Shown here piece after piece: positions 36,301-64,000 of a stretch of 64,000 bases of DNA. Position 1 is the first letter of the stretch. The number at the start of each line of letters is the position of its first letter. The position numbers and the translations under genes were made by a program. The stretch is from Mytilus edulis (lineage: Eukaryota). Under the pieces are notes generated by a model. That model was not told the origin of the DNA. It made no database searches and worked only from the letters and a program-made list of their open reading frames with translations. The stretch lies in contig NC_092353.1 of the NCBI RefSeq assembly GCF_963676685.1, positions 59,024,001 to 59,088,000 of the forward strand, written 5' to 3'.

Positions 36301-38827
36301 TATTCCGTACCTTTAACTGTTCTCTTACACTCATCGCCTGAAATATTCAAATTAACGAAGATGACAAAATTTATGACGATTATTGTCTTGTCTTAACTGG
36401 ATATCGTTACCTTAGATTTATATCTATCATAAATAAATCAATACGGCGTCATTAAAGATTATAAACGAGTATTTCCTCGTTCAATTCATCTATAAATCTT
36501 CTTTAATATTGTTGATCTTGTAAATGTATTGTCAGTATTTTTTGTAATCATAGCCAGTGTTGTGCGATCTGACCAGTCATGCCATTTTGAGCTATTTATT
36601 CGTTGGTTTTTATGTTGTACCTTGTACAACTATTCGGTATTTTACCAGGTAGGGAGAATTATACAGACCTCAACTACGTTTTCAACACTGTCACCTACCT
36701 TATGTGCCTGTTCCAAGTCAGCAGACTGCAAGTCAATGATTAACGTTGGTTGCTGTCTGTCAAATTAAGGAAAAGGTTCACAAACAGCACAAAATGACGT
36801 AAAAGTATTAACTTTATAAAAAATGAAATAAAAAAGGGCATAATTTGGTTAGTAAATGGTATAATTCAAATGCCCTTATGCTTAAAAATTATTCCATTTC
36901 ATAAAAGTACATGATTTTCTCAAAAGAAAGCTCATTTTGGACATTTTGTCAAAATATAACGATTACAGACATTTTACAGACCTCAAAGCTTTTGGAACAC
37001 CTAGGCCGCCACCTACGATCCAAAATGTTTTGTTAGTAAAAGATTCCCATTTTTTATATATAAATCATCATATACAAGCTTTTTGGATCATGGATGGCGG
37101 GGGGGAGAGGGGGGGGGGGCTGGAATTAACCCTCAAAATGTAAAGGTCATAGCTTCATAAATTTTGAAGGGAGATGCCAAAAGATATATGTATGTCCTAA
37201 TAGTATTCTCACAAGTAATTCTATGTAAAATTTGTACTTTTTGAAAAATATAAAAAATAGGGCCAATTTACACCATTCGAAATCCTTCTCTTTTGTGATC
37301 GTTTTTGTTTTTTGTAATTCAGGCTGTTTTTTTGGTTGTTTTTTTTTAATTTATTCTTATTTACATTTAGTTGCCTATCATAGCTGAACATTTGGTATAG
37401 GATTTGTTCAGTGTTGATGCCCATACTGTGACTCAAATCTTTATCAAATCAGTTCCACTGGGACTCCGTTGGATAGTGGTCTTATTTAAACCATTCAACG
37501 TATCTTAACTTGAAATAGAATAAACCATTTAGATTATAACGATATAACAAAACAAAAAAATATTTAAGTAATATATGAAGATGTGGTATTTTGACAATGA
37601 GACAATTCGTCACCAGAGATCAAAAGAAATAAAAGTAAACAACAATAGAAAATATGTTTATGAGTTTGTGTCATGAAATGGGGATATTTTTTCAACTCAA
37701 CTTAATGTTAAATACATACGTGGATGACATCTATTATCATGTTCGTTGTAGAAGTGCGCTGGTTCACAATCACATACACTAAAAGCACAAATTAATGGAG
37801 AGAAACAACTGCTTACGGTTGTCGAACAAGGATCTTGGTAACTTCCAACTGTAAAAAACAAATTAATCGACATTTAATTGTTTGATGCTCCATTTATTTT
37901 TCGATAGTTTATCATCTTGGATCAACCTGGATCGTAGTCAGAGTTATAACATTCGTTAATTGAATCACTCTTAAAATATAAACAAGGACAATGACAGTCT
38001 AAACTAACGGAGTTGGTTATTATTGGTTTTATTTAAAAAAATACGTCCCTGGGTAATGTTAGTAATAAACAACTAAGTTTCGTGCCTTTGATATGCAAAG
38101 CTGGTCGTTTTTTGCGTATTTTTTTTTAAGTTCATTGTATTTAAAAAAAAATCTAAAAAAAAAAATCTGATCAATAACCTATAACCATTGCATAACCAAA
38201 AATGCAAGATTTTGATACAAAATTAGAAATGTTAAATTATTTTACTGAGATACTCCGTTAAAAACACTGTAGGCGTGCAAAAGGGAGTACATATTGAATA
38301 TGTTGATTAAGATGGCGGCTACAAAAATCTAATAGTTCAAAGGTCTATTTATGAAAAAGTATCCGAGAAATCTTTTCAAAAACAGCATTTTACAATGACA
38401 AAGTGTAAACAATTGCAATAAAATGTTACTTCTCTAAAATTGCAAAATTGAGTAATTACTGTAAATCCAAATCAAATTCAAATGTAAATGGTAAATTGCG
38501 CTATATTTACAGAACATTGCCCTAAAACACCAGCTGCAAACGGTGCTTTTTTCGCTACATAATATTGCCAATATCAACAGATAATGATCACTCATATTTA
38601 AAATAAGAATGTGTCCAATGTACACGGATGCCCCACTCGCACTATCATTTTCCATGTTTTATGGACTTTAAATTGGGTAAATATCTAATTCGGCATTGAA
38701 ATTAGAAAGATTATACTATAGGGAACATGTGTTCTAAGTTTCAAGTTGATTGGACTTCAATTTCATCAAAAACTACCTTGACCAAAAACTTTAACCTGAA
38801 GCGGGACGAACGAACGAACGAACGAAC

Positions 38828-38858
<31 letters not shown>

Positions 38859-44800: not shown

Positions 44801-47800
44801 AGTATTCTCACAGTCAAGTAATTCTATGTAAAATTTGTACTTTTTGGCCCGATTTAAAAAAAAATTTAAAAAATCAGGGCCAATTTTAACCATTCGAAAA
44901 ACCTTCTCTTTTGTGTTTTTGTTTTGTGTAATTCAGGCTGTTTTTTGTTTGAATTGATTCTTATTTACATTTTATTGCCCATCATAGCTGAACATTTGGT
45001 ATAGGATTTGCTCAGTGTTGATGCCCGTACTGTGACTCAAATATTTATCAAACCAGTTCCACTGGGCCTCTGTTGGATAGTGGTCTCATTTAAACCATTC
45101 AACATCCCTTAACTTGAAATAATAGTAACCATTTAGATTAAACGATAAAATAAAAAAACAAAATATTTAAATACGTTTTGCTGAATAACTATGTAGCAGC
45201 TTTTTGCAATGGATTTTTTTCTTCTTTTATTCCAAAATATGAAGATGCGGTATAATTGACAATGAGACAATTCGTCACCAGAGATCAAAAGATATAGAAG
45301 TAAGCAACTATAGAAAATATGTTTATGAGTTTGTGTCATGAAATGGTGATATTTTTTCAACTCAACTTAATGATAAACACATACGTGGATGACATCTATT
45401 ATCGTGTTCGTTGTAGAAGTGCGCTGGTTCACAATCACATACACTAAAAGCACAAATTAATGGAGAGAAACAACTGCTTACAGTTGTCGAACAAGGATCT
45501 TGGTAACTTCCAACTGTAAAAAACAAATCAATCGACATTTAATTGATGCTCCTTTTTTTTCGATAATTTATTATCTTGGTCAACCTGGATCGTAGTCAGA
45601 ACTATAACATTCGTTAATTGAATCACTCTTAAAATATAAACAAGGACAGGGACAGTCTAAACTAACGGGGTTGGTTACTATTGGTTTTATTTAGATAATA
45701 CGTCCCTGTGTAATGTTAGTACCAAGCAATAAACTAAGTTACGTGCCTTTGATATGCGAAGCTGGCTGTTTTTTGCGTATTTCTATTTAGGTTCATTGTA
45801 TTTAAAAAGAAAATCTAATAAAAAAAAAATCTGATTAATAACCATTAACCATTGCATAACCAAAAATGCAAGATTTTGATACAAAATTAGAAATGTTAAA
45901 TTATTTAACTGAGATATCCCGTTGAGAAGAACAGTACAGGCGTGCAAAAGGGAGTACATATGTATTGAACATGTTGAACAAGATGGCGGCTACAAGAAAT
46001 TAACAAACAAATACTAATAGTTCAAAGGTTTATTTATGAAAAACTATCCGAGGAATCTTTTCAAAAACAGCATTTTACAATGACAAAGTGTGAACAATTG
46101 CAATAAAATGTTACTTCTCTAAAATTGCAATTTGAGTTATAACTATAAGTCCAAATCAAATTCAAATGTTAATGTTGATTGCGCTATATTTACAGAAAAT
46201 TGCCCTAAAAAACACCAGCTGCAAACGGTGATCCTTTTGCTTTTTTGGCTACATAATATTGCCAATATCGACAGATAATGATCAATCATATTTTAAAAAA
46301 GGCCAATGAAAGAACTTAAGGATCACAAAAGGTATGTTTGGTAAAAAATAGTTTTCCGATATGGAAAGACATGTAACCGAGTTAATTCTCGTTCAAAGCT
46401 CGTATGAAAACTGTTTGTACCATGCACTTTTCAGTATAAAATCTGTCGAATTCCTTTTAATGTTAAGATCATTATGATATACTTTATTAGTTTTTTTTAT
46501 TGAATACGACTGAAAATTAATTATTCAGATTAGTTAAGATTGAATACCCTTCCAGAGCAATTGTATACTGATTTATGTAATGTTCGCACATATCGGTATA
46601 ATGTTTTAACAAGTTTTGTTTTTATGTGCATATATGTAGGTTACAATGAAGAAATTTGTTTCATATTAGATATTCAATTAGAGTTGTTATATCAATCTCT
46701 CAAAATTTACCAGAACATACCTGCTTTCAAGCTATCTGATGAAGTTATAAAATGTAAATATCTGATTTCGTTATGCTCGTACGATAAATGAGCAGGCGAC
46801 TCGTAATAGGTCTGAATTTTAGTCAGATGGTTTTAACCCACGTTGTTACACTTATAAATAACATTTGGTACTATTTTTTAAATTTTTTTTTGTAACATAT
46901 ATATCACTTAGTATTGTTGTGAGATCTTTGAGCCATTAGAAACTCTTACGGAAAAAATATGAAAATAAAATGAGAAAATAACCAAAAGTCGCTGTCAGAT
47001 CAACAATAGAAGGCCCAGTGCACAATAAATATCCACAAACATACAATGTATGTAAGATTAGATGACATAAAACCAATTATTAATTAACATTTTGTTCGGT
47101 TATAAATCGATTTACAGCAAAAAATCCAAGTTACAAACTAAAACCGAAGGAAACACATGAACTATATAAGTCGCCGATAAAAACTTTAATAGTCAAAAGT
47201 GTGTAACGGAAAATTGCGTCAAACACCAACAATTCATCAATAATCTTTATTTGTCCCAAAGGGTATGACCAGCCAAGTAGTCAACACTTCGGTGTTGACA
47301 TGAATATCAATAATGTGGTCATTTTTAAACATTTCCTGTTTACAAAACTTTGATTTTTTTCGAAAATCTAAGGATTTTCTTATCTCAGGCATAGATTACC
47401 TTAGCCGTATTTGGCACAACTTTTTGGAATTTTGGATCCTCAATGCTCTTCAACTTTGTACTTGTTTGGTTTTATAAATATTTTGATATGAGCGTCACTG
47501 ATGAGTCTTATGCAGGCAAAACGCGCGTCTGGCGTACTGAATTATAATCCTGGTACCTTTGATAAATATTTAACAATGTATGTATATAAACTATTCATGA
47601 AGTGTATGTAGTGTTATTGCAAATGTAAGTAAATAAATAATTCCGAGTCTCAATTTACATAAAAGAACTACGTAGTTTTATAGAACTAAAATACCTTGAA
47701 CAGAGGAAGGTTTTTGTGGCATACTTATGATTATTGTCACTTCTACCAGTCAATGCAAGATTCAGCATAAGCAACCAAGAAACATTTAAATATTGAAATA

Positions 47801-50800: not shown

Positions 50801-53800
50801 TTGTATAGGGAACAATTTGTTTCATGTCTCGTGTTTGGATAATACTAGTCACAGGAAAATATTACCTCATCTGTATTTGGGAAAATTTTAGTAATTTTTT
50901 ATCCTTAATGCTCTTCAACGTCGTACTTTATTTGGACTTTTTATTTTTATTTTTTTTCGGGTGTCACTGATAAGTCTTAAGTACATGAAACGTGTGTCTG
51001 GCGTAAATACAAATTTTCAATCCTGGTTTCTAGGATGAGTTTATATGAACATAAGAGCCCTTGCTATAACACTTTGAGGGGTTGTTAGTAGACCTGTTGG
51101 TAAACGATGAAAGGCAAATTGTCTGCCCCTTTTCAATCCCCTAATTTCCAGAGCTAGTTTAAATTTTTATCACCTACTTTGTTATCAGTCAACCATGCAA
51201 ATACTATATATTGTATTGGCTGTATATGTGTAAACGTTCTGAATATGCACAAAAAAAAATTGTATCAGTACATAAACAAACAGAAAATTCAATATCTTAA
51301 TTTAATATCACAGTCAATAGATTTATATAAACGCGTGACACTGATGTCAGGGCACACAACTAGAATGTCTGATATAGCCTTTAACCTTTATTATTTTCAT
51401 TCAAGGCCAAAGCCTTCTTAATAAAAGTACAAAACAGTTGAAACAACCAAGTAAATGAATAAAAGATATTCTGAACATCCAAAGTCAACACATATGTGAA
51501 GGATTTGTTATCTTAAATTAATTGAGACTTTCATCTCCATGTTTTTTGATAAAATTAATTTAGAAACGTTATTGGACTTTATTAACATAAAAGGGAATTC
51601 ATTTTTGTTTTATCGTCTTGTTCCTACATCAGGCATGTACTAAACAGTTGTCCTTGAATATTGTAAAACTTTTTTGGACAGTAATGTAAATGAATGATTA
51701 TTTTACATACATTAAGAATTTAATTAATCTCCAGGCATTGTAGCTGTACAAACATTTGATTCCCTCGCATTTTAGTGTTTTTGTTTCTATGTATAACTTC
51801 TACGTGAATTAATTAGACTTTAACATCGGTGAATACACTCATATATACCAATATTAAAATTTGGTATATGCATCAGAAAAGTCTACAAAAGTCTCATCAG
51901 TGACTTGAATAAAAATATCAAATAGGCAAAATAAATAACGAGACTGAAGAGCATTGCGGACCAGAAATTCCTAAAAGTTTGGCCAAATATAGCTACAACA
52001 ATACTGAGATAGAAAAGCTCAAGAATTTCAAATTATGTTACTAAAAATCTAGACTTACCACAAAAAGGAATATCGCAAAAATCCCATCTGTAAAGAGGGT
52101 CCATGGTATAACACCAAGGTCCGGGCTCATGATCTGGATTACGGCAATAATTGTGTTTCATTTTAGACAATTCCTCAAAATTTGTAGGGCGATGAGGAGT
52201 TTCCACATCCCATCTCTGACAGGCTAAGTTGCTGCGGGTAATGCTGGTTGTTCCTCGATATTCAAGACCTTTCGATGTTGTCTTACACTCCTTACAAAAG
52301 GGAATATCGCAATAAGACCATGTGTCATCAGGGTCCATGGTATAACACCAAGGGCTGTCATCACCGTCTGGATTACGGCAATAATTGTGTTTCATTTTAG
52401 ATACTTCCTCAAAATTCGAAGGACGATGAGGAGTTTCTACATCCCACCTCTGACAGGTCTGGTCGTGTCTAGTTACGCTGATCTGTCCTTCATATTCGAG
52501 ACCTTTCGATGTCGTCTTACAGTCATCCTCTACAATAATCAAACAAAAAAGTTAATTAGAGTAACGAGGACAATTTTGTAATTTTCTTACAGTCAGTTCA
52601 TTGCTGCTTTCGATTTTTATACATCAAAAGCATGAAAAGGATATACTAGTAGATTTATCGCCATAGGCTAATACAGATTATAAGAAAATATGTACCTAGT
52701 TTCATTTATCCTTTCAAGTCTTATATAATAATTCTAATCCGGACATCACTATCAATTTTTGTTTTACTTCAATAACAAGCTGGGTTTTTTTTTCATAATA
52801 TAAAACATTTCCAACTGTTTAGTTGATCTGATGTTGTGCTTGTTTACCACTATAAAACAGGGGCGAAAGATACCAGAGGGATAGTCAAACTCATTGATCG
52901 AAAATAAACAGACAACGTCATACTTAACACAGAAAGAAAGACAAATAGATTAATATTAGTACGCAAGATATAGCCCAGTCAATCTAGCATAAATTAACCT
53001 AACCTTAAAGTTATTGCAACAGAATATTTTTAAGTTCTAATCTTTAGCATTATGCCACAAATATACACAGAAAAAAGTCTCATAAAATCTTACTCGAGGA
53101 AGACTAAAAATAATTATCATTTAAAATTCCAATGGAGATTTGAATTGAAAAGGGAGATAACTCTTGCAAAAAAGACAGAAATATCAATAAAAATTGATAC
53201 AAAATTATAACTTTACCGCTTCTATTCATCAGAATATATTGATTCTTGATATGATATCGGTCTTTAGGGTATAACAAACAACTCTAAAGGTGTTTTCATA
53301 TCTTTAATCAAGCTTTCATCTAGATTTCGTAATGCATTAGTTGACCATTAATTGAATTTTTCAACATGTCAAGGTAAAGAATCTCAAATTTTAAAAAAAT
53401 AGTTAAGCATGTATTCTTCTTTTTGTGGTTTAAAGTTTCTTTAGACAAGTAAGATGCTGAAAAATATGATATACAGATATAAACAATACCAAATTTTCAC
53501 ATTATTTTTTTCCAAACTGGTCACAAAGCTTCAAATTTGCAATTCCTTTAATGAAAAATGCACAAAAAAAATACAACTACCTATTACACTTCGGTTTTGT
53601 ACATTTTATGAGCAGTAGATTATATAATTTAGTTAAAAACAAACTTATAACCCCATCAAAGTATCATACTATACATAAGTTTCAAGAAAATCAACCTAAA
53701 AAGACCCCAAAAAAGACTAAATTTTTTCGGAGTTATCTCCTCTTCCAATGTTGATTTCCATAGGAAATTAAAAATGCTGATTTTGAGATTTCCTCAAGTT

Positions 53801-54756
53801 AGATTTTATGGGACTTTTTTCTGTGTGTATCAAGGGCATTTTATAATGCTATATATTAGAACTAAACCATTTTCTGTTGCAATTAGTTTGAGGTTAAATC
53901 TTAGTTTGACTGGACTAACACAACATAGATAACTAAAGATTAAGCAACATGAACCCCACCAAAAAACTGGGGTTGATGTCAGGTGTTCCGGAAAGGTAAG
54001 CAAATCCACATGTGGCACCTATAGCTCTTTCATGTTAAAAGAAAAATTGAGAGCTCACAGACATGGTTTATCCAGCTTACTGGTCAATGTACATGTCTAA
54101 TGTTAGGAGCCTGCAATTCAGTGGTTGTCGTTGGTTGCTGTTTGTCATACTCTTTTGTTAGTGATTTTTTTTTATAAATATATCCGGTTGTATGGCGTAT
54201 GAATTGTTGAAAGTTATGATATATCGGGCCTATTGTAGAAGATTTCACAATTATATGCCAAATTTAAGAACATTTTTCAAAAATTAAATGTGCTTTCTTT
54301 ACAAATTTTCCTAAGAATTCAATTAGTATTATTATAGAGAATAATTTAAATAAACCAAAAAAAAATATATTTGTCTTTCTTTTTCAAGTTAAATGGGTCA
54401 AATTTGTATCAAAACATTTATCAAAATCTGTGTCATACCAAATTTACTGTCATCACTTTTATGAAAAATTCTGTAGTATACTTCAATTTTTATTTTTTTA
54501 TAAGATTTAGACTCCTTCTGGTCCATTTCGAGGTGATTGAATTTCGGTATTTTCAATTTTTCATTGATGTAGATAAATAAGGAAATATTCGCGACGATTT
54601 ATATTGGACCTTTTTTCTTACTAGAGAATAAATCGCACGCAAAAATAAGTTGGTTAACAATAAGTTAAAGTTCACATTTTTAGAACTTAAATTAAACTTA
54701 CGAGCAGTGGATCCGTGTAGTGTTAACACCAGAATGGTAACGAATAACGTTCTCAT
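179..54756 (-). CDS. Spliced gene model (>=28 coding exons): secreted multi-kringle / EB(EGF-like)-module protein, SP-[KK-L-EB]x3-KK-L-KK-L-EB-KK-L-KK-L-EBx9, >=1818 aa, 3' end unresolved
   Basis: Every exon listed below has canonical AG/GT boundaries. All internal exons have lengths divisible by 3 (471-483, 54-57, 129 nt) and join in phase 1 without stops. Coding total is 5455 nt. Confidence 0.88.
730..1040. repeat. Dispersed SINE-like repeat (reverse-complement fragments at ~8450-8630 and ~25060-25145)
   Basis: ccattttctaca...aatgcctgtaccaagtcaggaatatgacag...gagttcagtatttttgtgattttactttt. Confidence 0.6.
1119..1392. mobile_element. Same HINE-like family, diverged copy
   Basis: aagaatgcgtcc...ggacgaac repeats...atgcccataaatgggg; absent at paralogous ~3060. 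Confidence 0.75.
2737..2865 (-). CDS. EB/EGF-like exon 12 (FGRYKETCSTAVSSCFTPLSCKSGLCECEPNYFYNSDDNTCNT)
   Basis: 129 nt, cag acceptor, GTAAGT donor. Confidence 0.9.
4227..4355 (-). CDS. EB/EGF-like exon 11 (FNRYKEPCATAVTSCYSPLSCESGLCECHTNHYYKTDHNTCNA)
   Basis: 129 nt, cag acceptor, GTAGGT donor. Confidence 0.9.
5035..5163 (-). CDS. EB/EGF-like exon 10 (FGRYTEPCSTAVTSCYSPLTCETGLCECETHHYYKADDNTCNA)
   Basis: 129 nt, cag acceptor, GTAGGT donor. Confidence 0.9.
5910..6038 (-). CDS. EB/EGF-like exon 9 (FGSYKEPCSATVTSCYSPLVCASGLCECETNYYYNADDNTCKP)
   Basis: 129 nt, cag acceptor, GTAAGT donor. Confidence 0.9.
6889..7017 (-). CDS. EB/EGF-like exon 8 (FGRYEETCSTAVSSCFSPLSCASGLCRCGTNHYYNADYNTCNP)
   Basis: 129 nt, cag acceptor, GTAAGT donor. 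Confidence 0.9.
8635..8841. repeat. ~205-bp inverted-repeat MITE with poly-G / poly-C arms
   Basis: gctattccagaaaaaaatgtatg(G)n..gaaggca / tgccttc..(C)n catacatttttttctggaatagc. Confidence 0.8.
9029..9157 (-). CDS. EB/EGF-like exon 7 (LGRYKESCSTAATSCYSPLMCASGLCECETNHYYNADHNTCNP)
   Basis: 129 nt, cag acceptor, GTAGGT donor. Confidence 0.9.
10021..10149 (-). CDS. EB/EGF-like exon 6 (FGRYNEPCSTSVTSCYSPLMCASGVCKCETEHYYNAADNSCNK)
   Basis: 129 nt, cag acceptor, GTAGGT donor. Confidence 0.9.
10938..11250. mobile_element. Same HINE-like family, full copy
   Basis: aagaatgtgtcc...(ggac/gaac/agac)n...gcccctctactatcgtaggtgtggcataaa; absent from the neighbouring EB-unit intron (~9860). Confidence 0.8.
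11411..11539 (-). CDS. EB/EGF-like exon 5 (IGRYTEPCSTAVTSCYSPLVCASGLCECETNNYYIAEDNTCNA)
   Basis: 129 nt, cag acceptor, GTAGGT donor. Confidence 0.9.
11813..11958. repeat. Short inverted repeat element
   Basis: aacttgtaaacggt.g.gat..ccacc / ggtgggaatctcgaccgtttacaagtt. Confidence 0.55.
12253..12309 (-). CDS. Mini-linker exon L7 (DCEDPETQYRDPVDTICKA)
   Basis: 57 nt, tag acceptor, GTAAGT donor. Confidence 0.88.
14420..14890 (-). CDS. Double-kringle exon K13-K14 (471 nt)
   Basis: Two complete kringles; tag acceptor, GTATGT donor. Confidence 0.95.
15283..16170. repeat. Two copies of a SINE-like dispersed repeat in inverted orientation (~15283-15565 and ~15760-16170)
   Basis: gatgtggtatgattgccaatgagacaac...caggctcctg versus caggagcctg...gttgtctcattggcaatcataccacatc; fragments also at ~10510-10690, 37575 and 45240. 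Confidence 0.7.
16404..16460 (-). CDS. Mini-linker exon L6 (DCQDPRMQFRDPMDDICKA)
   Basis: 57 nt, cag acceptor, GTAGGT donor. Confidence 0.88.
17257..17733 (-). CDS. Double-kringle exon K11-K12 (477 nt)
   Basis: Two complete kringles; cag acceptor, GTAAGT donor. Confidence 0.95.
18540..18668 (-). CDS. EB/EGF-like exon 4 (IGSYQDPCSTTVSSCFSPLICASGTCDCEPAHFYNEHDNSCYP)
   Basis: 129 nt, cag acceptor, GTATGT donor, six Cys. Confidence 0.9.
19212..19420. repeat. Dispersed repeat; second copy at ~6667-6800
   Basis: aattga..gaaatggggaat.tg.caa...gcagacaacag.cgaagg.ca.caatgggtc shared by both copies. Confidence 0.6.
19765..19821 (-). CDS. Mini-linker exon L5 (SCENVETQYRDPTDGICKA)
   Basis: 57 nt, tag acceptor, GTAAGT donor. 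Confidence 0.88.
21186..21581. mobile_element. Short TIR element (GGAGGTTCGC...GCGAACTTCC) with its right end locally duplicated
   Basis: Inverted termini, TTAA on the left; acaagcgaacttccttcaactgaaa occurs twice (21568-21623). Confidence 0.6.
23446..23916 (-). CDS. Double-kringle exon K9-K10 (471 nt)
   Basis: Two complete kringles; tag acceptor, GTAAGT donor. Confidence 0.95.
23981..24157 (+). mobile_element. Degenerate 5'-truncated retrozyme family A fragment
   Basis: ttggcacaa...aatgctc...gagcgttaatgataggtctcatgtagactaaacacgcgcgtc...tggtacctttcataactattt. Confidence 0.75.
25540..25583 (+). ncRNA. Type I hammerhead ribozyme, intact; predicted cleavage after C25577 (GUC)
   Basis: GCGTCA-CTGATGA-GTC ttatgta GAC-GAAAC gcgc GTC-TGGCGT: full core, stems I, II and III, palindromic GCGC loop III. 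Confidence 0.92.
25893..25950 (+). ncRNA. Type I hammerhead ribozyme variant (14-nt loop II expansion, weakened stem I)
   Basis: CTGATGA-GTC ttatgttggcggaattatgta GAC-GAAAC gtgc GTC-TAGCTT. Confidence 0.75.
26687..26743 (-). CDS. Mini-linker exon L4 (DCQDPRLQFRDPMDKICKA)
   Basis: 57 nt, tag acceptor, GTAAGA donor. Confidence 0.88.
27218..27620. repeat. HINE-like element with ~160-bp internal tandem repeats and terminal hairpin
   Basis: gatgacaaact...gcaaataagttca unit repeated ~2.1 times; ends ctccgtaacgtcgttgcggggtgtataa. Confidence 0.55.
28257..28739 (-). CDS. Double-kringle exon K7-K8 (483 nt)
   Basis: Two complete kringles; cag acceptor, GTAAGT donor. Confidence 0.95.
29187..31624. mobile_element. 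Tandem dimer of a Helentron-type element carrying ~120-bp internal satellite repeats
   Basis: Subterminal inverted repeat gtcaccaaaacgga / tccgttttggtgac; hairpin tgtgttagcatcctaacaca at both unit ends; repeats of aaaatggccgccgttaccatggaaacagc; empty site at ~18185. Confidence 0.75.
30704..31283. mobile_element. TIR MITE with TTAA-like target (Kolobok/piggyBac-type ends) nested in the satellite
   Basis: TIRs AGGAGTAGGTCCGGTAAGGGCC..TTTGGCCCC / GGGGCCAAA..GGTCTTACTGAACCTACTCCT; flanks TCAA / TTAA. Confidence 0.75.
31909..32037 (-). CDS. EB/EGF-like exon 3 (IGSYQDPCSTTVSSCFSPLICALSVCDCEPAHFYNEHDNRCHP)
   Basis: 129 nt, cag acceptor, GTATGT donor, six Cys. Confidence 0.9.
32096..32780. repeat. 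Local tandem amplification of a ~117-bp intronic segment
   Basis: tatcttggtcaaccaggatcatagc...aattgaatcactcttaaaata four times; single copy in paralogous introns (~37910, ~45570). Confidence 0.75.
33460..33620. mobile_element. Same HINE-like family, truncated copy
   Basis: aagtttcaagatgattggacttcaac...gaaaacataatgcctataaatggggcataaaaa. Confidence 0.7.
33625..34180. repeat. ~168-bp tandem repeat array with terminal hairpin (HINE-like); partial paralog at 41960-42210
   Basis: tttcaaagtcaatagacca...ggccaaataatctcc three times; ends tgtctcgct...agcgagaca. Confidence 0.65.
34255..34311 (-). CDS. Mini-linker exon L3 (ECENPETQYRDPDDGICKA)
   Basis: 57 nt, tag acceptor, GTAGGT donor. Confidence 0.88.
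35861..36337 (-). CDS. Double-kringle exon K5-K6 (477 nt)
   Basis: Two complete kringles; about 13 nt differ from K3-K4 (manual count). Confidence 0.95.
37720..37848 (-). CDS. EB/EGF-like exon 2
   Basis: 129 nt; protein identical to EB exon 1; cag acceptor, GTATGT donor. Confidence 0.9.
38603..38910. mobile_element. Helentron-associated non-autonomous element (HINE / DINE-1 / pearl-like) with (GAAC/GGAC)n core
   Basis: atgcccc near the left end, tetranucleotide microsatellite, terminal hairpin atgccc...gggcat, A-rich target; absent at paralogous ~46295. Confidence 0.8.
40237..40990 (+). mobile_element. Non-autonomous Helitron (754 bp)
   Basis: A|TC...CTAG|T termini, subterminal imperfect hairpin (cccacgatatcacggg), no target duplication; empty site ggcA|Tactt at 47721/47722. 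Confidence 0.9.
41590..41950. repeat. Dispersed repeat; second copy at 52858-54030 is split by the Academ-like element
   Basis: gggacgaa.gataccagaggga.agtcaaactcat...gaaccccaccaaaaact.ggg.tgat..caggtg.tccgga. Confidence 0.7.
42285..42341 (-). CDS. Mini-linker exon L2 (ECENPETQYRDPDDDICKA)
   Basis: 57 nt, tag acceptor, GTAGGT donor. Confidence 0.88.
43418..43894 (-). CDS. Double-kringle exon K3-K4 (477 nt)
   Basis: Two complete kringles; cag acceptor, GTAAGT donor. Confidence 0.95.
45385..45513 (-). CDS. EB/EGF-like exon 1 (IGSYQDPCSTTVSSCFSPLICAFSVCDCEPAHFYNEHDNRCHP)
   Basis: 129 nt, cag acceptor, GTATGT donor; C-x6-C-x5-C-x4-C-x-C-x12-C. Confidence 0.9.
47253..47571 (+). mobile_element. 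Retrozyme family A near-monomer with mutated hammerhead (GAAA to AAAA, 47492-47535)
   Basis: Matches the 25.3-kb unit; absent from the paralogous site at 40060/40061 (tctattt|aacaatg). Confidence 0.85.
48026..48079 (-). CDS. Mini-linker exon L1 (ECEPGTQYRDPDDDVCKA)
   Basis: 54 nt, tag acceptor, GTAAGT donor; homologous to six other mini-exons. Confidence 0.88.
49234..49382. repeat. ~150-bp near-perfect hairpin (MITE-like)
   Basis: agacaataatagtgcattgacttgacatatcaa.gatataaggat / atccttatatc.ttgatatgtcaagtcaatgcactattattgtct. Confidence 0.85.
50850..51042 (+). mobile_element. Degenerate family-A-related retrozyme fragment
   Basis: aatgctcttcaac...gtcactgataagtcttaagtacatgaaacgtgtgtctggcgta; core and stem II are mutated. 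Confidence 0.65.
51835..52034 (-). mobile_element. Degenerate family-A-related retrozyme fragment, sense to the host gene, with GAAAC/stem III lost
   Basis: Reverse complement reads aatgctcttca...gtcactgatgagacttttgtagac-ttttctgatgca. Confidence 0.6.
52059..52529 (-). CDS. Double-kringle exon K1-K2 (471 nt)
   Basis: Two C..Y.G..SVT...CQRW...HNYCRNPD...PWCYT.DP...W..C.IP.C repeats; tag acceptor, GTAAGT donor. Confidence 0.95.
52971..53917. mobile_element. Non-autonomous Academ-like TIR element nested in a dispersed repeat
   Basis: TAGCCCAGTCAA...ATTGCAACAGAA / TTCTGTTGCAAT...TTGACTGGACTA; 3-bp flanks ATA / ACA; host repeat is uninterrupted at 41590-41830. Confidence 0.72.
54702..54756 (-). 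CDS. First coding exon: signal peptide MRTLFVTILVLTLHGSTA
   Basis: Acceptor ttttttcag at 54772, ATG at 54756, GTAAGT donor at 54701. 18 codons plus 1 nt; basic-hydrophobic-small residue pattern; splices in phase 1 to give Q-D-D-C-K of kringle 1. Confidence 0.85.
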
Positions 54757-55384
54757 TGCTGCGCAATCTACCTGAAAAAAATAAACACTAACAATCTTCA
54801 TCAATGTCTACTAAGAGAAAAAAAATCCTAATGAACTAAGCTAGGAGTTTTGCATACGTGCTACGTGCGGCAGCTTAAGACCCGGCCATTGAAAGGTCAG
54901 TGAAACAGTAGTTTTACTGCTTAGATCACTAGGCCAATGAAGCCCTTAAATTTGAGACAATTTCGGCTAAACAGTAGATCTTTGATTGTTTATGTTAGAT
55001 TTAATCATTTTGAGTGTCTTGTTGGCCGTCCAGGTAATCTATGAAAAAAGTTGCAACAGAATATATTATTGCTTTAATGTTGTCAGATGACTGCCATATA
55101 CAACATATAAACAGTCTTTGAAAATCAAAAATGTATAAAGGGGTCAATTCGGGGGGTCTACTTTGTGGATTTTGGCTTCCAGATATTGACACAAAAAGAT
55201 CGCCATACACACAAAGGGAGACAACTACAACAACAAGACTTTTAGTGTCAGCTACAAACGATATCGTAAACTTATTCTGCAAAACTAATTATGCAATGTC
55301 AATAAAGACTTCAATTGATGGTAAGTATCTCTATATATATATTATTATACGAGTTACAATAACATCAACGGTACCAATTTTTCT

Positions 55385-55428
55385 GCACTAGATGTGCATT
55401 TCGACAATACATGTCTCTTCAGTGATGC
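55385..55428 (-). ncRNA. Type I hammerhead ribozyme (family B, AUC cleavage triplet)
   Basis: GCATCA-CTGAAGA-GAC atgtatt GTC-GAAAT gcac ATC-TAGTGC; one stem I mismatch. Confidence 0.82.
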
Positions 55429-55732
55429 TCGTGGCCAAAATATGTAAAATCCAAAGCTTATATAAAAGATGAAGAGCTATAATCCAAAAGTTCCATAAAG
55501 TATAGCCAAATCCGGGAAAGGAATCAGAGCTTTGCATGAGGGAGATACATTTCTTAACTTTTAATAATTTTTAACATTTTGTAACAGCAAATTTAATAAC
55601 ACAAAAAATCCGTATTTTCATGCCAGTTCTTGTATACTGGGTACTAAGCTGGTGATACCCTCGGGGACTAACAGTCCACAAGCAGAGGCATCGACCCAGT
55701 GGTAGTAATAACATAACGGTACCAATTTTTCT

Positions 55733-55779
55733 GCACCAGATGCGTATTTCGACTATCATATATGTCTCTTCAGTGATGC
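55733..55779 (-). ncRNA. Type I hammerhead ribozyme (family B)
   Basis: GCATCA-CTGAAGA-GAC atatatgata GTC-GAAAT acgc ATC-TGGTGC. Confidence 0.85.
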
Positions 55780-56084
55780 TCGTGGCCAAAATATGTAAAA
55801 TCCAAAGCTTATATAAAAGATGAAGAGCTATAATCCAAAAGTTCCATAAAGTATAGCCAAATCCAGGAAAGGAATCAGAGCTTTGCATGAGGGAGATACA
55901 TTTCTTAACTTTTAATACTTTTTAACATTTTGTAACAGCAAATTTAATAACACAAAAAATCCGTATTTTCATGCCAGTTCTTGTATACTGGGTACTAAGC
56001 TGGTGATACCCTCGGGGACTAACAGTCCACCAGCAGAGGCATCTACACAATGGTAGTAATAACATTAACGGTACCAATTCTTCT

Positions 56085-56129
56085 GCACTAGATGCGCATT
56101 TCGACAAATACATGTCTCTTCAGTGATGC
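56085..56129 (-). ncRNA. Type I hammerhead ribozyme (family B)
   Basis: GCATCA-CTGAAGA-GAC atgtattt GTC-GAAAT gcgc ATC-TAGTGC; palindromic loop III. Confidence 0.85.
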
Positions 56130-57183
56130 TCTAGGCCAAAATATGTAAAATCCAAAGCTTATATAAAAGATAAAGAGCTATAATCCAAAAGTTCCAAAAA
56201 GTATAGCCAAATCCGTGAAAGGAATCAGAGCTTTGCATGAGGGAGATTCATTTACAACCTGTACAACAACGGTAGAAGCAAGAATCAGCAAAAGTAAACA
56301 TTCCCGAGTGACGTCACTACGCGGGTTTTTCACATGCTATTTTCGGCATTTTTCAAGGAACTAATCAGAACTTTTTGATATGAAATACACATATTTACAG
56401 AAATAAATGTATGTTTTGTTATATTGGACCCATTTATACGTTTTGTTTCTAAAATATTAACAATTCTACATACGTCATTGTCCAAATTTAAAATCTATGG
56501 AACGCCATTCGAGACAAAAAACTAACAATTATAATATATATAATATATATATATATATATATACACGGATTAGAAAAGTTGCATAAATTTGATCAAATCT
56601 GAGTTACTGCAACATAAAATAAGAAATATTAGAAAAATATAAATGCATTTGTGTAATCCTGATGCAAAAAAAAAACAACAAATTAATATTAAACATATTT
56701 TAAAATAAATAAGCAAATTGGAAATTACATAACTTTTTTTTTTGCAGATTATATGGATGAATTGAATGATATAAGCAAAATTAATGCAATATGCCACGAT
56801 GAGATATAATCCAACAGTGATTTAATAGTTTTAAGGTAGTTTTAAGGTAATTTATAACAAATCGTAGAGTTACATGTTCACTGCACAAATATTTGATTAA
56901 CAGTAAATATACGTATATTAGTATTGAAATATCAATTACCAGTCTCTGTATTTAAAAGATAATCTGATAGCCACGTTTTGAATAACTGCCAGGTAAAATC
57001 AAAGAGTATACAATTTGTTGTTTCTGCTTTCATAAATCACAAATCGTAAAGTATTTTAATTCTAATACACAGTGAAATAGTGATGGACGTATACATACTA
57101 AACATTATTATTAAGAAATATAATTAGGATTTTCAACTGTTTAAGGGTATATATTTTTATACTTGCAGGTATCAGTGGCTGTG

Positions 57184-59497
57184 ATGGAAAAATGCATCAT
57201 TTGCCTTAAAGATGACGATACATCATCATTTAATTTAGTCAAGTTACGTGGAAAAGGAAGCCAAGGAATAAATGGGGGGCAAGGAAAATTATTCATTGGC
57301 ATCAGATGTATCATTACTTAAATCAAATTTGGAATATGTACCTGAGAGCTTAAGCTATCTACTAGAAACAATGTTTGCTGAAAAGGACTCTAAAATGAAA
57401 ATAGCTCCTATTGGACAGGCAATAATTCAGGCATCAAGACCCCGTGTGCGTATTGCTCCTTTGCAAATTGGTCTTGGCATTCAACTTCATCACATCTTTG
57501 CATACCGTTTTCTGGTTTCTACTTTAAATAGCTTAGGATTTTGCTCATCTTATCAAGAAATTCAAAAATTTTGAATCGATAGCTGCTTTAACACAAGGCG
57601 AAATATGTAATAGTTTTATTCAATTTGTAGCTGACAACGTAGACCATAATGTGATAACACTCGATGGCAATAACACATTTCATGGAATGGGAATCATAGC
57701 CGGCATGTAATGAGACGTAGTGACAGATATTGGACAGGGTTGTCATTAGATCTTATGATTGAACAAGTGCTCATGAGAAGTGTAAAAAAACATCACAGTG
57801 GCCTTTGTCCATGCCCGTTTGTGCAACCACGAATCAAGCTATTCAAGAGCTCACAGAAGTAGGTTACTACACAAGTGATCAGCACAAGGAAGAATCAATT
57901 GCATGTCAAAAACGAGACAGAGAAGACATTATGTCAATTCTTACATTTTTATAAGAACGCAGTCAGTTCACTGTGCAATATTGAAACTGGAGTAACAGCT
58001 GATAGCTCTGTTAATGTAGACAACTCAAAAGATGTGGGCACAGCGATAATAGAATCTCTCGTTGGACAAAACGTCATTGACTATATTTTCAAGAAAAAAA
58101 AATCAAGTAATAATAGCAAAACTAGTTTCAAAGTAAACGGAGAATTATTACAAGTCAACCCACAGCTACTGTTTCAAAGATGCACCACCATAGCTAATGG
58201 ACTATTTGAAGACATATCAGAAATATTCAAATATGAACTCTGTAGTGTTCCATCTCGTTATTTGACAATAATGGCTTACCAAGACAGGCAAATAAATCAA
58301 TTCTAGCAGACTCAATTGGGGACTTTGATGGAAACTGATGTTTGGAAACAGGCACCAATGTTCACCATGTATTAGATGGTGGGTCTCTCATACATCGCAT
58401 ACCTTGGACAAAGGGAAACTCATACAATAGTATTTGTCAAGCGTATATTGATTACGTTAAAAGCCGCTACTCTGAAGCAACTTTTGTATTTGATGGTTAT
58501 CCAGATGAAACTACTGTCAAAGATATTACTCACATACGACGATCAAAAGGATGTATTTCTCCGAAAATAAATTTTTCGGCTGAAATGCCCTGTAAAACTA
58601 AAAAGGATGCATTGTTGTCAAATGAAGAGAACAAACAACGATTTATCAACCTGCTAAGTTCAAAATTTGAGGCAAGTGATTATGCAGTAGTTCATGCCCT
58701 TGACGATGCCGACTTGAATATCGTTCAAACAGCAGTCTCAATTTCGGAAGAACGACATGTCGTTGTTATAGGTGAAGACACAGATTTGCTTGTTTTACTT
58801 TACTATCATGCCATAATGCACAACAAAAACGTTTATTTCAAGTCAGAACCGAGGCAAAGTGTTCAAAAGATCCGAATATAGGGATATAAAAAAACAAAGA
58901 AACATTTGGGTGAAGCTATCTGTCGGTTGTTGCCGTTTATACATGTATTTAATGGGTGCGACAAGACACCACGAGTGTTTGGGTTAGGAAAAGGAGCACT
59001 ATTGAAAAAAGGTTAGTCATATTAACAAGATCAATCACAGCTTTTCCATCAGAAATCAAGTTAAAGATCAGGTTGTCAAAGCTGGAGAAGAGGTTTTAGT
59101 TGATTTGTATGGCGGTGTTCGGTCAGTAGAAGGCTTAGATTTACTTCGATACAGGAAATTTGCGTCAAAGGTCGTTGTAGGGAACATTTTCGTTTAAGTC
59201 GTACTCTGTCGTCAACATCGGATGCAGCTACATAGCATGAGAACCTTCTATCAAACACAAATTTGGATTGGAGAAGGACATGACTTAGATCCTAATCAAT
59301 GGGGTTGGTATACATCAGAGAATAAACTAATGTCTGTTAGATGTTTATTACCACCGGCACCCCAAAAACTGCTGAAAGTAATACGATGTAACTGCAAACA
59401 GAACTGTGATTCAAGAAGATGTTTGTGCCCAAAACATGGAATTGACTGTTCTGCTAGTTGCGGCATAGTTATTCAAAGTGATTTGGACGAAGTTTAG
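57184..59497 (+). pseudogene. Decayed Academ-like transposase/XPG(PIN)-nuclease gene with C-terminal Cys-rich finger
   Basis: Fragments MEKCIIC..., FIQFVADNVDHN...GNNTFHGMGII, VLDGGSLIH, FVFDGY, DDAD, GEDTDLLVLL, GCD..GLGK and CNCKQNCDSRRCLCPKHGIDCSASC; many frameshifts and stops. Confidence 0.75.
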
Positions 59498-59922
59498 ATT
59501 ATTTGTTTGTTGTGTATGGGGGAAAATGGCTATGACTATGATTTTAAACAACACAAGTGTTATATAAACAGGTTAGAGAACTAGACATGTCACTTTAAAT
59601 ATGAACTATAGACTAGTATGGACATTGTCCATTGAATGTGTAGCTGATATTTTTTTTGTTCCTCTCCAACTTCTGCTCAATATATCTATAAAGTTAGAAT
59701 AACTAGCCGTTAAAAAGATATATAATTTCATATGTTTATTTTTGTTGCAACTAGAATTAAAAGTACTAATTTAACATTTTTTCATGATTTTTTTAAATAA
59801 ACCTCTTATTTTTGACACGTGTTATAATTTTTGGTCATGGATTTACTATTTAAAATTTTGTTATAGGCAGGCATTACAAATAACAGGTGACAAATTAAAG
59901 TTCTATTTTTATTGACTAGTAC

Positions 59923-60368
59923 TTAGAATGAAATTCAAAACAGTGTAGCTGTGGCCATTGATTGACACATTAAAATCATCCATTGACTGGGACAATTTAG
60001 GTGAACGTTTGTATGTAACGACCAATGCTCACTATGTACTTTTTAAAGACACTTAAACTATGGGGTCACCAAAGGTTCTCAACACCTAAGTAAAGTAATT
60101 CGAATTAATCAGAAATAACACGATATTTTGATTTATATCAATTATATAAATCAAAACACAAAGGTTATTCCTGATTAATTTTTCGAATTATTTTATAATT
60201 AAAGGCGTTAAGAAACCTTTGGTAATCCCACAGTTTAAATGTCTATCGTAGGTACGTCGTGAACAGTGGTCGTTACAGACAAACGTTCACGTAAATTGTC
60301 CCAGTCAATGGATGATTTTAATGTGTCAATCAATGGCCACAGCTACACTGTTTTTAATTTCATTCTAA
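59923..60368. mobile_element. Foldback MITE, ~446-bp near-complete palindrome
   Basis: ttagaatgaaatt.aaaacagtgtagctgtggccattgattgacacattaaaatcatccattgactgggacaattt... with matching reverse complement; pairing continues to the centre. Confidence 0.85.
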
Positions 60369-60952
60369 TTTAACCATTCCAGTGATTTATAATTTTCAAT
60401 GAAAAAAAATTTGTTATTTTCGATGAAAAAAAGGTTATTTTCAATGTAATATTTGTAATGTTCAATGAAATTTGCATTTTGAACTCAAATTATAGACCAC
60501 AAATTTATAGTTTGTCATATAATGCCTTTTATATTTATAACAAAATTAATGTACAGTAACTACCAAATTAATTATTTGAAGCATATTTCCAGTTTTCCTA
60601 GATTTTTTCATAACAAAAATCCTATTTTTACCCCAAAATAACGTTTTTGACATATATATGTCCTTTTTTGTTAAAACTCATTTCTTTTTGTATCATTGTC
60701 AATTGAATCACACACTGTTTGAATGATTTTACTACAAAATAAACTTGTTCTGGTCTATTTCCAGTTTTCAGCGATTTTTCTATAAAAGCCTGTATTTTAC
60801 CCCAAAAATAATCGTATTTTCGCACTTCAGATTTTGCAAGACTTTTAATTTGTGATAGAGGAGGCCATATTAACCTTTAAAATGAGACCAAATTTCTGTC
60901 TGTTGCAATTTGTTAAAGGTTGGGCTATTTTCGGGGTAGAATGACTGAACTA

Positions 60953-62700
60953 CATATTATATTCCTTGAGAGTTTGAACTTAAAAGTAGAGATGCCTTGT
61001 TTATCAAAAATTGACAAAAAACAACACACTACCGAGGAGGCAAATTCTTCTCGCTTATAACAAAAGTTCGCTGGGCAGTTAAAAGCGCCAATGGATGCAT
61101 TAAACAGTGGCGCTTTCTCGACAAAGTCTTTTCAAACCACTTCGTTCCCTATATTGGAGATTTTGTCAGAATTGTATCAAACGATGCTGTGTCAGGTGAC
61201 ATGGGCTGGAAACCACCATGTGTTAAACAGTGGATAAATATGTTTAGACACTGGTCCAAATGTACAAAAATGGACAATAATAGAATTAATTATAAAGTTT
61301 TTAAATGGTCAGTGATGAAAGGTAGTTGTAAATTAAAAAATTGGTGCTACAAAGTTATGGAGATGTTGAAATCATTTGATTTTGAAAGATATTGTAAAAT
61401 AAATGAAAATTTTCTTGATAGTTTTAGTATATCTCAGTTAGAAGAGAAAATGTTTGATAAATATAAAAAAGACTGGTGTACAAGAATTTTTTCATATAGT
61501 ACCGGTTGTAAATTGAGAACATATAAACTTTTTAAACATACTTATAACACTGAGCAATATTTGCTACAGAAAATGCCACAGCGCCATCGTAGTGCTTTTT
61601 CAAAGTTTAGATGTGGTGTAGTACCATTATAAATTGAAACTGGTCGATATGAAAGAAAAAATCTAGACGAAAGAGTCTGTTTTAACTGTAATATTTTAGA
61701 GGATGAAAAACATGTATTTTTAAATTGTCCCTTGTATGAAGATCTAAGACATGCACTTTTTATTGATATATTGTGTCATAATGATGTTTTTAAACTTGTC
61801 TGATGAAAAATTTACATATATGTTTAAAAATACCAATATTAGTAATATTGTTGCCAAAACCTGCAATAACATTTTAACAAGGAGAAACAGTATTTTATAT
61901 CATTAACTACTGTATTTGTAGTATTTTATAAAACGAATAAGTTTTATTTGTATTTTAATAGTCTCTCATAATTCTTTTAAGAATGGCACATACATGTATT
62001 TAATTGTTTTAACTATGTTTACTGTATAATTAATTTTATAATTGTATCTTGTTTTAATCATGTTGTATGTGGTGAGACTTTAATAAACTATTGAATCTGA
62101 ATCTGAATCTGCATTCATTAATTACTTCCCGGATCCACTGATTAATGACTTTTGCAATGAAGAGCTTGGCCAAACTATGCTGGATATAGCGCAGCTTGGT
62201 AACCAGGTACAGAAGTATGTCGAGGACAATAATTTAACTCGCAAAAATGCTATATATTCTGAAGTAAATGGCACGGAAAACCTTTTAGATTTTGCTAAAC
62301 TTACTTTCCAACAAATCAGAGATATCATCTGAAGCATGCCCCAATATATACAGAAAGCCATCTATCTGATGACAATAACTTGCTCCAGACTTGCCGTGAC
62401 CGACCTAATCTATTACGAGAAAAACTTATATATTCAGACATTCGTCCTCAAAAGTGTACAGTGTATGGATTGAATTATATTAGTGGAGATGAAGTCACCG
62501 GCTGGTACTGCACCTGTAAAGTTGGCGCCCGGGTGGTCGGTTGTTGTGCGCATATTGCATCTACAATATGGTACCTTGGTTATATCAAGTGGGAACTAGA
62601 GACACCAAGCTCGTGTAATTATGCAGATTCGATTTTCAATGCAAAGATGTGTCACTTGAAACTGATTCCGAATCTGATAGTGACGGTTTCATTGAGGAGT
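60953..62700 (+). pseudogene. DDE transposase remnant (DDE_Tnp_4, Harbinger/ISL2EU-like) with SWIM finger, split by the LINE
   Basis: QHTTEEANSSRL, KVRWAVKSANG..KQW..L..V..N..VPYIGDFVRIVS | AFINYF and GWYCTCKVGARVVGCCAHIASTIWYLG. Confidence 0.65.
61180..62110 (+). mobile_element. 5'-truncated non-LTR retrotransposon 3' end (RTE-X / CR1-group-like)
   Basis: AVSGDMGW...KLRTYKLFK...FRCGVVPL*IETGRY...RVCFNC..EDEKH...CPLY; AATAAA followed by a (GAATCT)3 tail. Confidence 0.82.
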
Positions 62701-64000
62701 GACTTTTTCTTGTCTTGCGAAATTCTATTAGCTATTAATGTTAAATACGGGTTTTTTTCTCGCTGATTGTAAATACTTTACTGTTAATTATCTGCTCACT
62801 AATTAAGATAAAGAATATGTTTGTACACATTTTTAATCACATGTAAGTTTTAGTCATAGCTTTAAAGGTGAAGTTTTATTCATGCAGGGGAACTTTTTAC
62901 AAAGAATGATTCTCATTGGTTCCACGAACATTCACAGAACATTGTTTAATTTTATTAAAGACCCAGGAGCAGGGCTGCCAATTATTTCATTGTTTATATA
63001 ATTGTTGTTTAATCATTGAATAAAACAATAGTTCAAGTTATGAATTATGATTTTTTTTAACTTATCTGCTTTAGGACAAGGGTTTAACCTAATACGTATG
63101 GTGTCATCATGAGAGGGCCTTGAAGGTCATTATAAATTTGAATTTTTGGTAAAAACTTTTTCGTAAGAGTAATTTTATTGTTTTTTTTTTGGGGGGGGGG
63201 GGGGTGGAGAGGTTGAAGTTCATACATCGAAAAGTCGATGCTATGCCATGGATACGGTTGCTAGGTAGTTTTCTAAGCATAAAAAGCTAACAAAAAGTAA
63301 GATATTTAATGTAATGTAATCACCTAACAATAGAAACCTAGCTTTGGTCAACACATTATTGATTGCATAAACCTTGCAGAGATATTAAAGGCTGTGGTTG
63401 CTAAGTATACATTGATGTTGCTAAGGGTCATTCTGGTGGCTAAGATGTTGATAAATACTGGTATAAATAGTTCAGATAAATGAGACATTACTGTTTGCGA
63501 TTTCCACATATGTATTATACAATGATACATTTTGATTCATATAAAAAAGACACATGTTTTGATAAATAAGGTTTAAGATAGCGTATAATTAGCAGATTTT
63601 AAATCTGTTGCTAGGCAACCAACAAATGATAATTACAAATAAAAACTGTCATTTTTTAAGCTTCTATATTTATTCTATTGAAATTATAAAATTCAATTCA
63701 TTTGAAGAGGGGGCAAAAATGGGCCTTATTGTACCTTGTCCTTTACCGTTACATAATGACTGGATGTAAAAGTACAGAGCCACGTCATATGTGTAACAAA
63801 GAAACAAGGGTTTTTAGACAAAGCCGTTTAAGCACATCGCAAAAATGAAAGACAAGCAAAAAACAAGTTTTCGAAGTAACCTCGAAAGGCATATCGACCA
63901 AGCACACAAACAACGATAACTGACAAGAATACGAGAATATCATAAACAATAATGACAGGATGTACAAATACCTCACGACAAGTATCTTTAAAACAATAAA

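Follow-up and report, generated by a model that had tools for sequence, protein, structure and literature searches.

The question raised by this stretch of Mytilus edulis DNA (NCBI RefSeq assembly GCF_963676685.1, contig NC_092353.1, positions 59,024,001 to 59,088,000; all 64,000 nucleotides are referred to as the window, and positions are counted from its first letter) is why a tandem array of three hammerhead ribozymes lies just upstream of the start codon of a kringle gene, on the strand of that gene, and whether it still cuts the transcript in which it is embedded. Our analysis indicates that the array is probably an aged, 5'-truncated insertion of a non-LTR retrozyme (LTR, long terminal repeat), which entered a DNA transposon located within a 42-kb intron of the kringle gene; as a likely passenger, it is predicted to cut poorly and probably leaves splicing unaffected. 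In addition, comparison with other copies in the genome revealed a fixed 3' end and a conserved hairpin, both of which point to a Penelope-like element (PLE) of the Naiad type as the candidate helper of the family.

Analysis with Tandem Repeats Finder delimited the array at 55358-56253 with a period of 351, 2.6 copies and 94% matches, while comparison with family copies assigned 2.55 units on the minus strand to what is here called family B, with a 5' end cut off near unit position 188 and a 3' end at the fixed point of the family, 33 nt past the last cut. Every unit contains a type I hammerhead (n = 3, minus strand) made up of stem I, a CUGAAGA core, a 3-bp stem II (GAC/GUC), GAAA, a 2-bp stem III closed by a tetraloop, and an AUC triplet. 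The 5' arms of stem I begin at 56129, 55779 and 55428, and the predicted cuts follow positions 56091, 55739 and 55391, resulting in spacings of 352 and 348 nt. In all three hammerheads the CUGANGA core, GAAA and the NUH triplet occur in order; A at position N7 and AUC as the triplet, both found here, are tolerated in type I hammerheads. The inventory given in an earlier note on this DNA, namely three hammerheads with a CUGAAGA core and AUC site on the strand of the gene, arranged in about 2.5 units at 348- and 352-nt spacing, was thus seen again in the sequence and by repeat finding, and its placement about 600 bp upstream of the kringle start codon is matched by a distance of 602 nt to the ATG at 54756-54754.

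The three hammerheads differ in their condition. Stems II and III pair in all of them and stem I is wholly paired in only one, since two of the three carry a mismatch beside the core pair of stem I, a stem that is fully paired in the standard family B form. Hammerhead 1 (56085-56129, minus strand, predicted cut between 56091 and 56090) has a standard core and standard stems II and III, and the second pair of its stem I is mismatched (C-A). Hammerhead 2 (55733-55779, minus strand, predicted cut between 55739 and 55738) has three paired stems, a 10-nt loop II and the stem III loop ACGC. Hammerhead 3 (55385-55428, minus strand, predicted cut between 55391 and 55390) combines the stem I mismatch of hammerhead 1 with the stem III loop GCAC, so that the palindromic loop GCGC is gone from both the middle and the last hammerhead. 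Compensatory stem changes relative to a second family, family A, had also been proposed; with the family A copy at 25540 as reference, one two-sided pair change was found in each of stems I, II and III, and the stem I form GCATCA/TGGTGC applies to the middle hammerhead but not to the outer two, which read TAGTGC and have the second stem I pair broken. On the minus strand, the cuts delimit monomer 1 (55739-56090, 352 nt, 36% GC), monomer 2 (55391-55738, 348 nt, 37% GC) and a 33-nt tail past the last cut site (55358-55390), which stops just short of the expected start of the hairpin described below.

A scan with Rfam at the gathering threshold gave no match in the whole window, family A copies included, and no LTR structure was seen at the array. 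In a circular fold 58-59% of the bases of the monomers are paired, and their stability did not exceed that of 60 shuffled sequences (z = +1.06 and +0.18); the longest stop-to-stop frame of the array region, 116 aa, is without support. The array displays traits of metazoan non-LTR retrozymes, being composed of tandem units within the 150-450 bp range, each with its own type I hammerhead, and belonging to a multicopy, dispersed element with a GC content below 50%, and its assignment as a retrozyme-type array of a second family is supported.

Pattern searches across the 1.37-Gb genome revealed 2,865 + 2,698 = 5,563 exact copies of the 16-nt 5' half of the family B hammerhead and 0 + 1 copies of the reversed control, which excludes chance as the origin of the motif; the corresponding family A half occurs 12,460 + 12,187 = 24,647 times. 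Near-full family B units of about 92% identity are spread over many contigs (40 of 2,699 candidates scored). Alignment of whole units from both families gave 253 identical columns out of 374 (68%), and within the window the family A copies at 25540, 25893, 47492 and 50961 differ from family B by one two-sided change in each stem. These features resemble the non-LTR retrozymes of Mytilus galloprovincialis (Cervera and de la Peña 2020, PMC7229834), for which some 5,000 type I hammerheads, divided between two similar families with repeats of 350-390 bp, were reported: the tandem units of about 350 bp with one type I hammerhead each, the two similar families per genome, the GC content below 50%, the target-site duplication of more than 4 bp and the dispersal of thousands of copies all recur here. 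Family B is therefore likely one of the two published mussel families, which are likened by description only, although the roughly 30,000 exact motifs found here stand against about 5,000 in that report, again with families compared by description. A fixed 3' end, a conserved hairpin and a named helper are not described in the parts of that account considered here, and the local copy differs from it in being decayed.

Forty family B arrays were compared in chromosome order (the first 14.2 Mb of contig C1 gave 47 loci, seven of which were dropped before their sequence was viewed). Of these, 33 stop 32-37 nt past the cut site, 19 of them at +34, and the local array stops at +33; the remaining seven stop at 28, 30, 330, 349, 349, 350 and 350. 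The corresponding binomial probability is 9e-52, for a 6-nt window that was picked after the data had been seen. In contrast to this fixed 3' end, the 5' ends are scattered from 1 to 315, and 32 of the 40 loci contain one hammerhead. In a less even sample of family A, 14 of the 22 arrays stop at the homologous position. As the common end lies past the cut site, we infer that the template was continuous across that site and primed internally.

The block directly following the common 3' end folds as a hairpin and is the part best conserved between families A and B (86% and 80% over two bins of 35 nt). Within the local array, the hairpin of unit 1 (55990-56057, minus strand), a structure common to family A and to the Naiad element introduced below, has a decayed outer stem, and in that of unit 2 (55639-55706, minus strand) the outer stem is reduced to wobble pairs; the stability z scores amount to -1.1 and -1.6 for the local copies and -2.2 for a family A copy.

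In search of a matching element, 30 loci encoding a GIY-YIG endonuclease were compared, of 150 scored from 858 candidates. In only one of the 30 does a long frame carry the endonuclease close to its start, and only that locus matches the hairpin (E = 6e-4), with a local score of 57.8 compared with 35.6 for the next of 38 loci. This Naiad-type element (L139, minus strand; G000:C5:1349500-1357500) comprises a frame of 1,053 aa, a 194-bp direct terminal repeat and a 4.3-kb body, and no hammerhead core was found in it. The frame contains a YIDD motif, which we take to represent reverse transcriptase. Of the two outer stems of the hairpin, all 13 pairs are kept between the predicted folds of the Naiad-type element and the retrozyme, three through two-sided and three through one-sided changes, and the Naiad version has one additional inserted hairpin. 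A 29-mer from the Naiad terminal repeat has 1,944 exact copies in the genome; the first 30 of these all belong to elements that end no more than 3 nt from the position immediately preceding the hairpin, in the register of family B. Here, 17, 9, 2 and 2 ends have 0, 1, 2 and 3 letters beyond a run of T, one of the 17 ending ahead of the run. At least 40 copies of the element are 89-99% identical over its first 500 bp.

With its N-terminal GIY-YIG domain, 4.3-kb body, 194-bp pseudo-LTR and lack of a hammerhead, the element on contig C5 resembles the Naiad Penelope-like elements (Craig et al. 2021, PMC8557442). The retrozyme has the hairpin and the 3'-end register in common with it and differs from Naiads in that no supported open reading frame was seen in it and in bearing hammerheads. 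A further difference concerns the inverted 5' arm, which is optional in PLEs and common in Naiads (PMC8557442): none of the 40 arrays carries an inverted family B arm at its 5' end, and there are thus no two-armed insertions among them. Some inverted family A or B piece was present inside the fetched stretch at 8 of 41 loci. Internal priming as such has been demonstrated in vitro for the reverse transcriptase of Poseidon, a Penelope-like element of Anolis (Frangieh et al. 2024, PMC11167929), which likewise starts inside uncut RNA downstream of the hammerhead cut, requires sequence beyond the start, and leaves genomic ends that mark the starts; Poseidon is, in contrast to the retrozyme case, autonomous and acts on its own RNA.

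Taken together, sequence comparison makes it fairly probable that mussel hammerhead retrozymes are parasites of hammerhead-free Naiads: both families bear the Naiad hairpin, at which copying would start, and the Naiad enzyme would bind the ligated circle, prime at +34 and roll round it to write truncated arrays. For the local copy, a retrozyme RNA continuous across the cut site, either a ligated circle or an uncut multimer, would have been bound at its hairpin by the Naiad protein, which would have nicked AT-rich DNA and begun to reverse-transcribe from an internal point some 34 nt beyond the cut site, to halt after 2.55 rounds. Later mutation would have weakened hammerheads 1 and 3 as well as the hairpin, so that the copy would now release little or no monomer, and the gene would tolerate rare, slow cutting of its pre-mRNA by hammerhead 2. 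Several points weigh against this model. An exact duplication of at least 6 bp was found at the ends of only 9 of the 40 arrays, the GIY-YIG loci compared were 30 of the 150 scored, and Pfam recognized the GIY-YIG endonuclease in the Naiad-type frame but no reverse transcriptase family; the proposed link moreover depends on the sequence of one Naiad family.

Two other routes to a 2.55-unit array were considered. A single truncated insertion could have grown in place by unequal crossing-over or slippage in the manner of a satellite, without any rolling-circle copying, as has been proposed in a recent preprint on Xenopus retrozymes (Li, Clavereau and Pollet 2026, 10.64898/2026.07.22.740005). The local units indeed match one another better (336 of 352) than they match a reference unit (324 of 353 and 325 of 350), and 10 differences in their middle part are common to them. 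However, copying round one RNA template gives equal similarity, a single duplication flanks the entire array, and even copies with one hammerhead cross the cut site to +34, so that the template was already continuous there; we regard growth in place as quite unlikely. Copying from a dimer template with one dead ribozyme, which would alternate the units, was rejected, as one column joins units 1 and 3 against unit 2 and two columns join units 2 and 3.

Having arrived by reverse transcription, as we favour, the array appears to have aged where it lies, a conclusion drawn from the private changes of its units (5, 6 and 2 columns over about 200 columns). The standard family B 3' half has 5,079 exact copies in the genome, compared with 64 for the stem I variant form carried by hammerhead 1, and none of the three local hammerheads matches it. 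At the 40 chromosome-order loci, 36 of the 55 hammerheads are standard, the others being damaged in core or stem (12) or further variants (7). Predicted hammerhead folds reached +3.4 and +3.9 kcal/mol for hammerheads 1 and 3, -1.1 for hammerhead 2 and -1.6 for a standard copy, which corresponds to a penalty of about 5 kcal/mol for the two outer ones. The self-duplex of the stem III loop, -10.5 in the standard form, falls to -2.3 and -3.7 in hammerheads 2 and 3; this self-complementary loop could support dimer cleavage and is lost in both. By these models hammerhead 2 would be the one most likely still cutting. The expectation that two complete monomers could be excised found no support, as either monomer requires hammerhead 2 plus one of the stem I-mismatched hammerheads 1 and 3.

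Some of the evidence pulls the other way and speaks for more activity than we assign to the array. The catalytic cores are intact in all three hammerheads, hammerhead 2 folds nearly like the standard copy (-1.1 versus -1.6), and a lone stem I mismatch may slow cutting rather than abolish it. In addition, even standard copies receive a near-zero probability of the active fold under the energy model, and the predicted energies therefore rank copies only roughly. These points bear directly on the possibility that the array is an active source copy, cut from the intron of the kringle pre-mRNA and ligated to circles of 352 and 348 nt, with the promoter of the gene driving their synthesis and the mRNA unaffected. 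Its sense orientation within a transcribed intron and the three intact cores would suit such a role, and abundant circular RNA has been reported for mussel retrozymes, although the co-transcriptional rate given for the mussel hammerhead, about 0.1 per min, is slow even when intact (PMC7229834). Family RNA is present in raw reads, with strand-biased depth in one run (246 versus 86 in X21) and no such bias in another (60 versus 57 in X24), and it does not show expression of the local copy. Most reads on a 12.5-kb stretch are only 90-95% alike (2,910 of 3,133 in X21 and 1,441 of 1,716 in X24) and hence stem from repeats and copies located elsewhere. Joints that wrap around by 349-350 nt were rejected as proof of circles because tandem DNA gives the same joints, and loose ends at 55648 and 55703 were rejected as local chimeras, since they belong to reads of family A type that the shared hairpin block connects. 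At the three cut sites, read ends did not pile up in X21 and X24, where the kringle exon is mostly without depth, so that this carries no evidence on cleavage. Considering also the need for a mismatched hammerhead in either monomer and the decayed hairpin of the local copy, an active source is unlikely.

Whether cutting would matter to the gene depends on its structure. Contigs from two runs, taken as RNA, join a 70-nt signal-peptide exon (54702-54771, minus strand, with the ATG at 54756) to a two-kringle exon (52059-52529, minus strand; acceptor end from the RNA contigs, donor end read from the sequence), with the joint running from 52529 to 54702, and Pfam assigned Kringle (PF00051) to the latter. 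A contig of run X1 departs from the genome at the acceptor and carries 143 more letters, which are absent from the window and from 20 kb on either side. In a genome-wide pattern search, 25 of them matched once, at C10:59121078, adjoining a GTAAG donor. The intron is consequently 42,305 nt long; its part in the window covers 54772-64000 (minus strand), and it continues to window-equivalent position 97,076, next to the end of the upstream exon (G000:C10:59121077). A spliced exon 42 kb upstream places the array in an intron and in sense orientation, with the cut sites 619, 967 and 1,319 nt ahead of the acceptor. The upstream exon (L031 1500-1643, minus strand; G000:C10:59121077-59121220) has the palindrome TGACGTCA about 25 nt upstream of the contig end, and it is taken as the very first exon from where a single contig stops. 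It may code for two residues, as an ATG at its end is in frame with the signal peptide.

The earlier note had reasoned that the ribozymes would cut the first intron co-transcriptionally if an untranslated first exon lay upstream of 56.3 kb. The premise was borne out insofar as an exon lies 42 kb off and the ribozymes are intronic and sense; that exon, with an in-frame ATG two codons before its donor, is maybe not wholly untranslated, and meaningful cutting of the intron is not supported in view of the stem I mismatches, the slow ribozyme class and a position that chance explains. From the genome-wide motif counts, an intron of 42.3 kb is expected to contain about 0.5 sense motifs in total, 0.09 from family B and 0.38 from family A, and the local array, the only match with at most two mismatches within the intron, is therefore placed as chance gives. 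Among Xenopus retrozymes, 42-44% are intronic, a slight under-representation, and eight of nine tested showed no cleavage (10.64898/2026.07.22.740005).

The immediate surroundings of the array are likewise those of a mobile element. The array is hosted by a DNA transposon of 6.6 kb that has short terminal inverted repeats and is present here as a decayed copy (55028-60952, plus strand). A 6-bp target-site duplication, TTACAA, flanks the array at 55354-55359 and 56252-56257 (plus strand), each copy overlapping it by 2 nt. The left flank of the array has 10 matching pieces at nine places in the genome. All five other copies of the host transposon that were examined are free of the array, unbroken across the site and contain a single TTACAA, so that a duplication exceeding 4 bp is confirmed by empty paralogous sites. 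The host element is read as a DNA transposon; a young copy has an open frame of 1,459 aa, for which no Pfam family scored above the cut-off and the match to DUF6589 was weak and below it. Two young copies on different contigs (L037 2528-9164 and L038 2595-9246) are 99.5% identical. An element of 446 bp at 59923-60368, a self-inverted repeat of 84% that resembles a miniature inverted-repeat transposable element, is nested in the local host copy and missing from the others, and RNA reads from other copies of it cover it well.

Empty-site reads and contigs (X21, X1, X17 and X18) were considered as evidence for an empty allele and set aside: the flank is a multicopy transposon and paralogues are possible, which leaves polymorphism at the locus unproven. 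In the DNA run X18, the sole contig over the site is empty at a depth of 6.0 compared with 5.8 on the unique flank, a weak hint that the array is perhaps not fixed. The animals whose RNA shows normal splicing may or may not carry the array at this locus, a point that weighs against the passenger reading.

A regulatory intronic ribozyme, with co-transcriptional cuts 0.6-1.3 kb before the acceptor that lower or tune the kringle mRNA and have been retained for this effect, would match the geometry of the earlier proposal. Functional intronic ribozymes such as CPEB3 are known (PMC10919898), and a fast ribozyme of hepatitis delta virus (HDV) aborts splicing (as cited in PMC2995048). Yet the array shows decay instead of conservation, is nested in a mobile element, belongs to a slow class, lies where about half a motif per such intron arises by chance, and may, from the empty X18 contig, not be fixed; we consider this explanation highly improbable. 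Splicing of a transcript that a hammerhead had cut within its intron was reported to equal that of the uncut transcript (Dye 2006, as cited in PMC2995048), and it was the fast HDV ribozyme, not the slower hammerhead, that blocked splicing (Fong 2009, as cited in PMC2995048). The local array is similar to the intronic ribozymes of amniotes (CPEB3, PMC10919898; hammerheads, as cited in PMC7761336) in being a sense, self-cleaving motif in an intron near an exon; unlike these conserved single motifs, it represents a decaying insertion of a multicopy element, nested in a transposon. Given ribozymes that are slow and damaged and a position that is chance-like, the array is best read as a passenger.

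Further observations concern the gene and the other copies. Seven exons with two kringle domains each occupy 14400-52550 (minus strand; at about 14.4, 17.2, 23.4, 28.2, 35.8, 43.4 and 52.0 kb) and probably belong to one large secreted multi-kringle protein, for which the splice of the first kringle exon is the one seen in RNA. Two of these exons lie within a recent tandem duplication (34838-39689 and 42409-47134, 85-89%). Within the 42-kb intron, broken frames of 205 and 155 aa at 61015-61632 and 62299-62766 (plus strand) look like remnants of mobile elements and gave no Pfam match. Family A retrozyme copies occur in the window on the plus strand at 25339-25988, 47260-47572, 50849-51027 and 23978-24162 and on the minus strand at 51885-51976, and of their hammerheads only the one at 25540 looks standard. 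Relative to the kringle gene, four insertions of family A lie in antisense and two insertions, one of each family, are sense and defective, numbers too few to count. Elsewhere, a seven-unit family B array (L003/L018, G000:C7:27860483-27862932) displays the stem I variant again three units (1,047 bp) apart, possibly as a higher-order repeat, and inverted family A pieces directly beside or inside family B copies (L058 3500-3632 and L064 1808-1913, in ribozyme-sense coordinates) suggest that the two families insert into each other.

The local element is another copy of a described kind, and the locus itself is of little weight, being a worn copy whose place chance explains. The family-level anatomy weighs more. 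Which reverse transcriptase spreads animal retrozymes is treated as an unanswered question in PMC7229834 and PMC7761336, and the derivation of retrozymes from PLEs has already been published in general form. The 2026 preprint shares with our case a link between animal retrozymes and PLE pseudo-LTRs and frequent intronic copies, and it ties frog retrozymes to Penelope-like elements by sequence kinship only; it is focused on vertebrates, mentions Naiad only in coral without linking it to a retrozyme, and its main text contains none of the words Mytilus, mussel, hairpin or stem-loop (10.64898/2026.07.22.740005). A retrozyme hairpin shared with Naiad was not found in the literature searched, comprising the main text of the preprint and part of PMC8557442. 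A 65-nt hairpin that is common with Naiad and lies directly after the shared 3' end of both elements makes the helper model directly testable. If hammerhead 2 still cuts, the locus would offer a natural case for examining a slow intronic cut near an acceptor against the splicing of a 42-kb intron. If the proposed parasitism of Naiads is true, the helper enzyme of these retrozymes and its recognition signal would be named, and genomic ends alone would show that the template was continuous across the cut site.

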